A stretch of 64,000 nucleotides of DNA from a virus (IMGVR_UViG_3300029861_000002); one strand, 5' to 3'; positions 14,995-15,069 are shown, counted from the stretch's first letter. Notes: generated by a model not told the origin, from the letters alone. Numbers and translations: made by a program.

Positions 14995-15069
14995 TGCGGA
15001 GTAGCGTAATGGTTAGCGCAGGGGTCTCTAAAACCTCGGGAGTGGGTTCGAATCCCACCTCCGCTGCCA
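14995..15069 (+). tRNA. amber-suppressor tRNA, anticodon CUA (tRNA-Gln-like; reads UAG)
   Basis: Acceptor UGCGGAG/CUCCGCU with an unpaired U1-U72. The D-arm UA-GCGU-AAUGGUUA-GCGC is essentially identical to tRNA-Gln(UUG) at 8368. Anticodon arm GGGGU-cuCUAaa-ACCUC, with U33 and A37 flanking CUA. T-arm GTGGG-TTCGAAT-CCCAC, G73, encoded CCA. Confidence 0.8.

Follow-up and report, generated by a model that had tools for sequence, protein, structure and literature searches.

The window analysed here is a stretch of 64,000 nucleotides of a viral sequence (IMGVR_UViG_3300029861_000002), in which we studied a phage-encoded amber-suppressor transfer RNA (tRNA) with anticodon CUA, hereafter tRNA(CUA), and the in-frame TAG codons that it is predicted to decode. 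The gene lies at 14995-15069 on the + strand, with a 72-nt body, the anticodon CTA at 15028-15030 and an encoded CCA at 15067-15069, and is one of 26 tRNA genes detected by ARAGORN between 85 and 15961, all of them on the + strand. The Rfam tRNA model RF00005 matched 14995-15066 with 61.6 bits, above its gathering score of 29, at an E-value of 6.6e-11 over the whole window. In the Rfam alignment, CUA occupies positions 34-36 of the 7-nt loop CUCUAAA, with U33 and A37, the pair 1:72 is flagged as non-standard (U:U), and the discriminator is G73, followed by the encoded CCA. An earlier reading of this DNA without database searches (the sequence-only reading) had described a 75-nt tRNA with exactly this loop, and the description was borne out by both ARAGORN and the Rfam alignment, which agree on CUA at 34-36 and gave no other placement of the anticodon. 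The molecule further contains G2-C71, C3-G70, a D stem beginning with G10-C25, an 8-nt D-loop with the canonical GG, a 5-bp anticodon stem, a 4-nt variable loop and the canonical T-loop TTCGAAT, and thus has the features of an elongator type I cloverleaf, with U1:U72 as the sole departure. Folded at minimum free energy, the molecule forms a perfect cloverleaf. The energy z-score (-1.23) carries no significance alone, so that tRNA(CUA) is supported by the covariance model and by conservation instead.

The anticodon and T arms of tRNA(CUA) were found exactly in seven IMG/VR contigs, where the gene order Ser(UGA)-Sup(CUA)-Leu(CAA)-Cys(GCA) is invariable, and a contig of the same species (L007) has C rather than U at position 1, which retains the mismatch with U72. 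We conclude that tRNA(CUA) is a real phage tRNA with an anticodon for UAG. The tRNA array extends upstream of the window with Ile-UAU, Leu-CAA, Asn, Leu-UAG, Leu-GAG and Asp tRNAs. No second CUA tRNA was detected beyond the window start in the contigs collinear with it; in a mosaic relative (L334) a second suppressor is present at the place just outside the window.

Two promoter-like sites precede the gene on the + strand, both found as pattern matches in a consensus scan. The nearer one, TTCAAA-17-TATAGT at 14950..14978 (9/12), ends 17 nt before the tRNA and is a candidate for a dedicated promoter, and the other, a sigma-70-type TTGACA-17-TATAAT with an extended -10 TG at 14522..14550 (12/12), lies 445 nt upstream and precedes a small open reading frame (ORF; 14572-14901) as well as tRNA(CUA). 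The tRNA would be transcribed with the array, possibly also from its own promoter-like site, and CCA addition would be unnecessary. Directly after the gene follow a ribosome-binding site (RBS) and a start codon (ATAATAAGGAGG...ATG). No ribozyme family reached threshold within the window (Rfam), and maturation of tRNA(CUA) by a theta ribozyme was rejected given the encoded CCA, the adjoining RBS and ATG, and the lack of a ribozyme match.

The window is part of a ~147-kb SPbeta-like gut phage, represented by near-identical contigs of ~143-148 kb. Its gene content includes the YorF and YorH families, DnaB, DNA polymerase III alpha and NrdDG, and the best protein matches among GenBank phages were to Bacillus SPbeta-type phages (~40% identity), with further matches to Enterocloster and Enterococcus phages; at the nucleotide level, the GenBank phage collection gave no match to the window. 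Exact copies of the phage proteins are indexed in about 900-1000 blocks of a public assembly collection. Two near-identical contigs were binned in a metagenome-assembled genome (MAG) of Oscillospiraceae and in an 'Eubacterium sp.' MAG, which is weak evidence for the host. Taking together this co-binning, the protein similarity, the SPbeta-like content and the prediction published for relatives, the host is probably a member of the Clostridia, consistent with the Firmicutes that the sequence-only reading had named for the GatCAB route.

All real genes of the window lie on the + strand, and frames bounded solely by TAA or TGA hold many in-frame TAGs. These are dense in the gene of the lysin (Phage_lysozyme2 and Amidase_2, 34693..36027), with 10 TAGs in the called gene and a Phage_lysozyme2 match over profile positions 1-140 across the TAGs, in that of a RecJ-like DHH exonuclease (52702..54453), with 13, and in homing endonucleases, including a GIY-YIG/NUMOD gene (45540..46202) with nine; a GIY-YIG endonuclease gene (43235..44146) contains 11. 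The gene of the thymidylate synthase ThyX (44427..45053) has three, with a Thy1 match of E = 5e-47 across them. Two TAGs each occur in the genes of a DnaB-like replicative helicase (49583..51121) and of a further helicase, and one in that of DNA polymerase III alpha (57191..61092), at codon 930 of a 1304-codon frame, where a standard-code call would cut the protein. TAG is largely absent from ~13.9-33 kb, where the DUF2828, RlaP, RNA ligase, NAD salvage, Thg1 and PNK-like kinase genes are located, as well as from the gyrase, ligase and NrdD genes. A gene for a Cys-rich repeat protein without Pfam match (23317..24180), with six in-frame TAGs, forms a TAG-using island within an otherwise TAG-free block. 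Across the homology-validated + strand ORFs there are 76 TAG, 297 CAA and 128 CAG codons, so that TAG makes up ~15% of the Gln-type codons.

The reading of UAG as a sense codon in these client genes is supported by the Pfam domains that match straight across in-frame TAG codons. Public proteins identical to genes of the window exist, and standard translation of their loci fails to reproduce them, so they had been called with TAG as Gln. ORF coverage rose from 0.69 to 0.86 when TAG was recoded; recoding TAA brought it further up, to 0.93, which makes this a crude and unspecific measure, and the per-locus TAG statistic is likewise too noisy for classing relatives as recoded. The claim that tRNA(CUA) is the partner of the TAG-containing genes is upheld by the TAGs inside conserved domains. 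The same codons bear on the idea of a leaky read-through, with TAG still a stop in most genes and only a few proteins extended. The modest share of TAG, the many genes without any, and the competition with release factor 1 (RF1) that suppression always faces would agree with it. However, up to 13 TAGs occur within single essential genes and conserved domains, and read-through of low efficiency would leave almost no full-length product because per-site efficiencies multiply. Moreover, no gene whose homology ends at a TAG was noted, although no systematic scan for such genes was made. We consider leaky read-through very unlikely as an account of the TAG usage.

Beside the client genes, the window holds two segments (45100-46210 and 47200-47980) that are extra with respect to a 99-100%-identical contig (L001), and one of these is the TAG-rich GIY-YIG/NUMOD gene, which L001 does not have; this implies that homing endonucleases using TAG as a Gln codon move between genomes. 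On the minus strand, a 386-codon stop-free frame (16073-17233) lies antisense to DUF2828, and further frames of this strand can be aligned between relatives as well; they look like shadow ORFs of conserved + strand genes rather than genes.

Residues opposite TAG in database homologs would have been circular evidence, as the database entries include proteins called with TAG as Gln. They were therefore replaced by codon-level counts, in which TAG was masked on both sides and only truly encoded residues were counted. On the same ground we discarded the columns of RecJ homologs, where Q occurs in 98-120 of 120 sequences at four conserved TAG columns. Against a recoded relative ~70% identical to the window (L005), the TAGs of the window align with CAG (7), CAA (6), Lys (7), Glu (4), Thr (3) and shared TAG (6). 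When alignments of the window at 30-90% identity to about 80 related loci were pooled, 64 TAG sites of the window were informative, with Q opposite in 34%, K in 20% and E in 14%, as compared to 45%, 13% and 10%, respectively, for real Gln in the same alignments. Log-likelihoods computed for these sites from empirical substitution profiles were -144 for Gln, -171 for Lys and -179 for Glu. Trp was outside the top six by likelihood as well as outside the ten commonest residues, and no TGG aligned with a TAG of the window in L005. Gln was the best-fitting residue in every heavily recoded relative, and in the GIY-YIG/NUMOD gene the motif YVG-TAG-S corresponds to YIGQS in a paralog. These comparisons indicate that UAG is very probably decoded as glutamine by tRNA(CUA), with TAG as a minor Gln codon under genetic code 15, and they agree with the residue proposed in the sequence-only reading, Gln being ahead of Lys by 27 log-likelihood units. 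In relatives without a CUA tRNA (L074, L079-L083), the few aligned TAGs stand opposite Trp or Leu and not Gln, which may be noise that read-through frames produce, or may mean that the situation differs in relatives without recoding.

Lys being the second commonest residue opposite TAG, one might think of pyrrolysine (Pyl), which some Clostridia-related bacteria use, and ARAGORN indeed labels the gene 'tRNA-Pyl'. One suppressor tRNA of phAss-1 has also been reported to be similar to a CUA tRNA of Dehalobacter (Babkin et al., PMC10607447). The label, however, is given by ARAGORN to any CUA anticodon, and a K share of 20% agrees with what is seen opposite real Gln. In genuine tRNA-Pyl the anticodon stem is 6 bp and the variable loop 3 nt long, the D-loop is tiny and without G18G19, and a TψC sequence is missing. 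In contrast, tRNA(CUA) has the stem and loop sizes given above and a GGTTCGAAT T-loop, and the Pfam annotations returned for the called genes include no pyl gene family. Insertion of Pyl at UAG can practically be dismissed.

The sequence-only reading had further derived tRNA(CUA) from tRNA-Gln, and here the tRNA itself gives a mixed answer. Its D-arm (TAGCGTAATGGTTAGCGC) differs from that of the tRNA-Gln(UUG) at 8368..8443 (+) by one edit, an extra U, which confirms the near identity noted before, and among ~1000 phage tRNAs just five other non-suppressor tRNAs have D-arms within two edits. This tRNA-Gln(UUG), which has A1-U72 and G73, is also the closest tRNA of the window overall (68%). Among 20 aligned tRNAs of the window with a short variable arm, G73 is limited to the suppressor, the two Gln tRNAs and tRNA-Trp, and the two acceptor-end features formerly pointed out, G73 and U1-U72, are seen in the Rfam alignment. 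The other tRNA-Gln of the window, tRNA-Gln(CUG) at 9079..9153 (+), exists as claimed (ARAGORN) and its anticodon is one change from CUA, but at 52% identity to the suppressor it does not qualify as a progenitor one mutation away.

Several observations weigh against an origin of the whole molecule from tRNA-Gln. Isotype profile hidden Markov models (HMMs), built from ~460 tRNAs of related loci and applied with the anticodon masked, scored Cys 44.1, Thr 43.3, Gly 39.3 and Gln 38.7, which ranks Gln fourth, although the classifier recovered 36 of 42 true Gln tRNAs when each was left out in turn. The nearest neighbours of the suppressor, at 72%, are Ile, Thr and Gln tRNAs alike, and unrelated tRNA pairs within the window reach 70%, so overall identity cannot decide the isotype. 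Within the Gln identity set (taken, like the Trp set below, from PMC9976931), C3-G70 instead of G3-C70 and A38 instead of U38 depart from the E. coli elements, and the published Trp set fits tRNA(CUA) about as well as the Gln set. The T arm is the common GTGGGTTCGAATCCCAC, which also occurs in neighbouring Cys tRNAs. From the ranking of the isotype HMMs, the body of tRNA(CUA) is best described as mosaic, with a D-arm that alone appears Gln-like; derivation from tRNA-Gln is plausible, in that the D-arm and G73 fit Gln, and finds no support in the isotype profiles or the overall sequence.

As for the identity elements themselves, tRNA(CUA) shares G73, G2-C71, G10, U35 and A37 with the Gln set, and C34 is also present. 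G36 of this set is replaced by A, as it must be in any amber suppressor, and the canonical weak U1-A72 pair is replaced by the U1:U72 mismatch, which goes the way that GlnRS requires without being the canonical element. With respect to Trp, the tRNA contains G73, G2-C71, G4-C69, G5-C68, A9, C34 and A36 of the bacterial set, and its loop CUCUAAA is one base from the loop CUCCAAA of the tRNA-Trp of the window, which likewise has G73. A tRNA-Trp whose anticodon CCA changed to CUA at one position, inserting Trp at UAG, might therefore be envisaged. Since both identity sets fit similarly, it is the codon data and not the tRNA sequence that separate Gln from Trp, and there Trp ranks low, as described above. 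In addition, identity to the tRNA-Trp of the window is 59% against 68% to tRNA-Gln(UUG), and in E. coli an amber-suppressor tRNA-Trp receives Gln anyway (PMC9976931). Insertion of Trp is thus highly improbable, and Gln is retained as the residue at UAG.

The mismatch at the acceptor end is not restricted to the tRNA(CUA) of the window. In a clade sample of 32 distinct CUA tRNAs from related loci (L006-L092), 22 have an unpairable 1:72, as U:U (14), A:C (4), C:U (2), C:C (1) or U:C (1), and 29 have G73. The 42 Gln tRNAs of the same loci instead have 37 Watson-Crick pairs (A-U or U-A), four G-U pairs and a single mismatch at 1:72, a difference from the suppressors (22/32 vs 1/42) with p = 3e-10. 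In a broad IMG/VR sample of CUA tRNAs of ordinary length, a mismatched 1:72 was found in 2 of 89 (p = 2e-14), and G1-C72 with A73 was the commonest arrangement. On these counts, the U1:U72 of the window is recurrent and peculiar both to suppressors and to this clade. Within the window, the only other tRNAs with an unpaired 1:72 are an initiator-like tRNA-Met (C1:A72, 1124-1198) and the tRNA-His at 2803-2879 (+), which encodes G-1 opposite C73 and has a U1:C72 mismatch. It is known that GlnRS identity depends on the 1:72 pair and G73, and that an E. coli amber-suppressor tRNA-fMet with an unpaired 1:72 accepts Gln (PMC9976931). The clade-wide pattern would most simply be read as the acceptor end making up for the loss of G36.

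A second class of suppressors was detected among relatives. Related loci and an unbiased pattern scan together gave 32 distinct CUA tRNAs with a length of 84 nt or more. In 27 of them a short, Gln-like D-arm is accompanied by an additional hairpin, which stands between the anticodon arm and the T arm, and the other five have type-II D-arms and ordinary loops. The 7-nt loop of the hairpin, Y-U-[C/U]UG-A-R, resembles the anticodon loop of tRNA-Gln, and its U-G-A is invariant; YUGA occurs in the variable region of 11 of 179 other long tRNAs (p = 2e-20). In all 22 motif-anchored hairpins both pairs that close the loop are formed, with five and nine double changes, and the covariation score is 0.667, as compared to 0.18 in shuffles (0/500) and 0.23 or less in slid registers. 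These hairpin-bearing tRNAs are 85-97 nt long, usually have G73 and come from L019, L025, L028, L059, L060, L066, L082, L089, L091, various loci among L107-L208, and L334 (7197-7287), where the gene lies immediately before tRNA-Ala. The tRNA(CUA) of the window lacks the hairpin. The mimic hairpin might serve the synthetase as a decoy or as another 'identity arm', with decoding left to the CUA arm. We found no prior description of a Gln-mimic hairpin in the searchable literature, and both this hairpin and the signature of an unpaired 1:72 with G73 appear to be new. It is a tentative proposal, which we hold to be possible rather than probable, that the suppressors of this clade evolved these two features as dedicated ways to stay Gln acceptors without G36. 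If true, they would be natural cases in which the identity signal is separated from the anticodon that decodes, and a testable answer to how suppressors are charged in code-15 phages without a synthetase of their own. As a separate observation, a relative on a 190-kb contig (L030) has no CUA tRNA and one tRNA with another stop-reading anticodon, UUA or UCA (ARAGORN), which hints that other suppressors may serve relatives, as reported for the mixed-code Agate phages.

The proposal that the phage carries its own decoding apparatus stood for the tRNA and not for the enzymes, as neither a synthetase nor a release factor was found among the annotated genes from about window position 6 kb to 10 kb past the 3' end, nor on the flank that lies upstream in L334, the mosaic relative. 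Charging with Gln would thus fall to a host enzyme, most likely GlnRS. This enzyme was present in 10 of 28 surveyed Firmicutes, Clostridium species included (PMC3927822), and in E. coli it is Gln that is attached to amber-suppressor tRNA-fMet and tRNA-Trp (PMC9976931). The Gln determinants kept by tRNA(CUA) would lie at the acceptor end and in the core (G73, G2-C71, G10, U35, A37), and an unpaired 1:72 (U:U, A:C or C:U) would present the host GlnRS with an acceptor end that is already open, easing the opening of the pair that E. coli GlnRS performs, which may offset the loss of G36. The charged tRNA would then compete with the host RF1 for UAG.

The same Gln end product would arise by an indirect route, in which a host GluRS of the non-discriminating type (ND-GluRS) attaches Glu and GatCAB converts it. 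This possibility draws on the 18 of 28 surveyed Firmicutes without GlnRS (PMC3927822), on the acceptance of both UUC and UUG anticodons by ND-GluRS, which hence tolerates variation at position 36 (PMC9976931), and on a YqeY protein encoded by the phage at 25616-26065 (+; Pfam 2.6e-10). On the other hand, B. subtilis GluRS mainly recognises a modified U34, and tRNA(CUA) has C34. The YqeY domain is related to the tail of GatB, which binds tRNA-Gln. As a charging helper, however, YqeY is a weak lead that we did not retain, as the gene occurs in five related loci only, is absent from L013 of the same species and does not co-occur with suppressors in relatives. Amidotransferases are also reported to rely on U1-A72 (PMC9976931), and 22 of the 32 clade suppressors have no 1:72 pair. 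Indirect charging is, in our judgement, an unlikely but serious competitor of GlnRS.

Some points count against direct charging by GlnRS and against the timing that may follow from it. The host is itself a prediction, both GlnRS and ND-GluRS/GatCAB stay in play, and the U1-A72 reported for GatCAB is absent from tRNA(CUA). An unpaired 1:72 is an initiator-like trait that weakens the binding of EF-Tu in E. coli, which may be a cost. Regarding timing, genes free of TAG would be expressed at once, and TAG-rich ones such as the lysin would await the accumulation of the suppressor. Control of the timing of late genes, together with charging by the host GlnRS, has been proposed for code-15 phages (bioRxiv 10.1101/2021.08.26.457843), and this early/late model fits the distribution of TAG only partly, with replication genes of the window carrying TAG as well and no clean early/late split. 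The field asks how suppressors are charged and outcompete RF1, and for this the unpaired 1:72 with G73 and the mimic arm offer mutable, testable features.

Other elements of the window concern RNA more generally. Within the array, tRNA-Gln(UUG) and tRNA-Gln(CUG) are separated by a full-length ROOL RNA at 8464-9059 (+; Rfam RF03087, 350 bits), and a transfer-messenger RNA (tmRNA; Rfam RF00023, 69.9 bits, full model) at 4696-5026 (+), uncalled by ARAGORN, is followed at about 5113-5511 by a LAGLIDADG-like ORF (motif LAGIIDGEGS) with in-frame TAGs. A tRNA-like gene at 9326-9446 (+; Rfam 46.6 bits), also missed by ARAGORN, is intact in its acceptor, D and T arms, contains ~48 additional nt in the region of the anticodon arm and ends in CCG rather than CCA; an intron-containing tRNA and a degenerate one are both conceivable. 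Downstream of the array, a largely TAG-free block of RNA/tRNA-repair and NAD-salvage genes extends over 16091-31620 (+) and includes DUF2828/DUF7788 (16091-17614), a RlaP-like nucleotidyltransferase (18885-19682), an RNA ligase (21947-23221), the YqeY gene, a Thg1-like 3'-5' polymerase (29622-30467), a PNK/KTI12-like kinase (30544-31050), and the genes of NAPRTase and NAD synthase. Judged by these annotations, the block suggests an active defence or maintenance of the phage tRNA pool. Thg1 is not needed to supply G-1 of tRNA-His, which is genome-encoded at 2803; that it repairs the U1:U72 end is pure speculation, and in the A:C class such repair would yield G1-C72, unlike tRNA-Gln.

Gut phages that use code 15 and encode a suppressor tRNA are already known, and the window adds a member to them. 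The closest by description are the Phassvirus genomes (phAss-1, BK046881, BK025033), which are ~133-136 kb in size, encode 28-36 tRNAs, among them 2-3 tRNA-Sup(CTA), and no synthetase, have TAG in ~40 ORFs read as Gln and are predicted to infect Clostridia (PMC10607447). They fall in the same SPbeta-like clade, with the Enterocloster phage PMBT10 and the Enterococcus phage EF1, and the relative L005 (135,918 bp) resembles them in size and recoding. The phage of the window differs in its size and in having one CUA tRNA in the array as opposed to 2-3 per Phassvirus genome; the GenBank phage collection searched with the window gave no match to the three Phassvirus records, and the relationship is visible at the level of the clade, through the SPbeta-like affinity and the Enterocloster and Enterococcus phage relatives. 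The other code-15 clades comprise crAss-like, Lak, Jade, Sapphire and Agate phages, the last with ~154 kb and mixed codes (bioRxiv 10.1101/2021.08.26.457843; PMC9523058), and for crAss-like phages proteomics has proven that TAG is read as Gln (Peters et al. 2022, PMC9523058). A phage suppressor tRNA, a host with the standard code, preferential recoding of lysis genes and a proposed charging by the host synthetase are common to them and to the window. The characterised examples, in contrast, mostly infect Bacteroidota, and in the window replication genes are recoded too (13 TAGs in the RecJ-like gene, two in DnaB, one in Pol III). A very prevalent human-gut phage thereby joins the code-15 phages that infect Firmicutes, and the window needs code 15 for its annotation, as standard calls would cut or fragment the lysin, RecJ-like protein, ThyX, helicases, Pol III alpha and homing endonucleases.

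Suppressor tRNAs associated with theta (HDV-like) ribozymes also occur in recoded gut phages (Kienbeck et al. 2024, PMC10879173). For the most part their genes do not encode CCA, and a self-cleaving ribozyme comes after them, whereas the tRNA of the window encodes CCA; of the DRB0094-type RNA ligase that is enriched in phages with theta ribozymes (PMC10879173), the RNA ligase of the window is a weak relative. Among cellular systems, E. coli supE (tRNA-Gln2, CUA) and the Gln-charged fMet and Trp suppressors share CUA, U35 and G73 with tRNA(CUA) and are charged by GlnRS without G36, and tRNA-fMet(CUA) has an unpaired 1:72 as well. The acceptor stem CGCGGGG of tRNA-fMet(CUA) resembles UGCGGAG of tRNA(CUA). 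The E. coli suppressors are cellular tRNAs that were engineered or changed by a single mutation and give partial suppression, whereas tRNA(CUA) is a naturally maintained phage gene with a mosaic body that would serve dozens of sense TAG codons.

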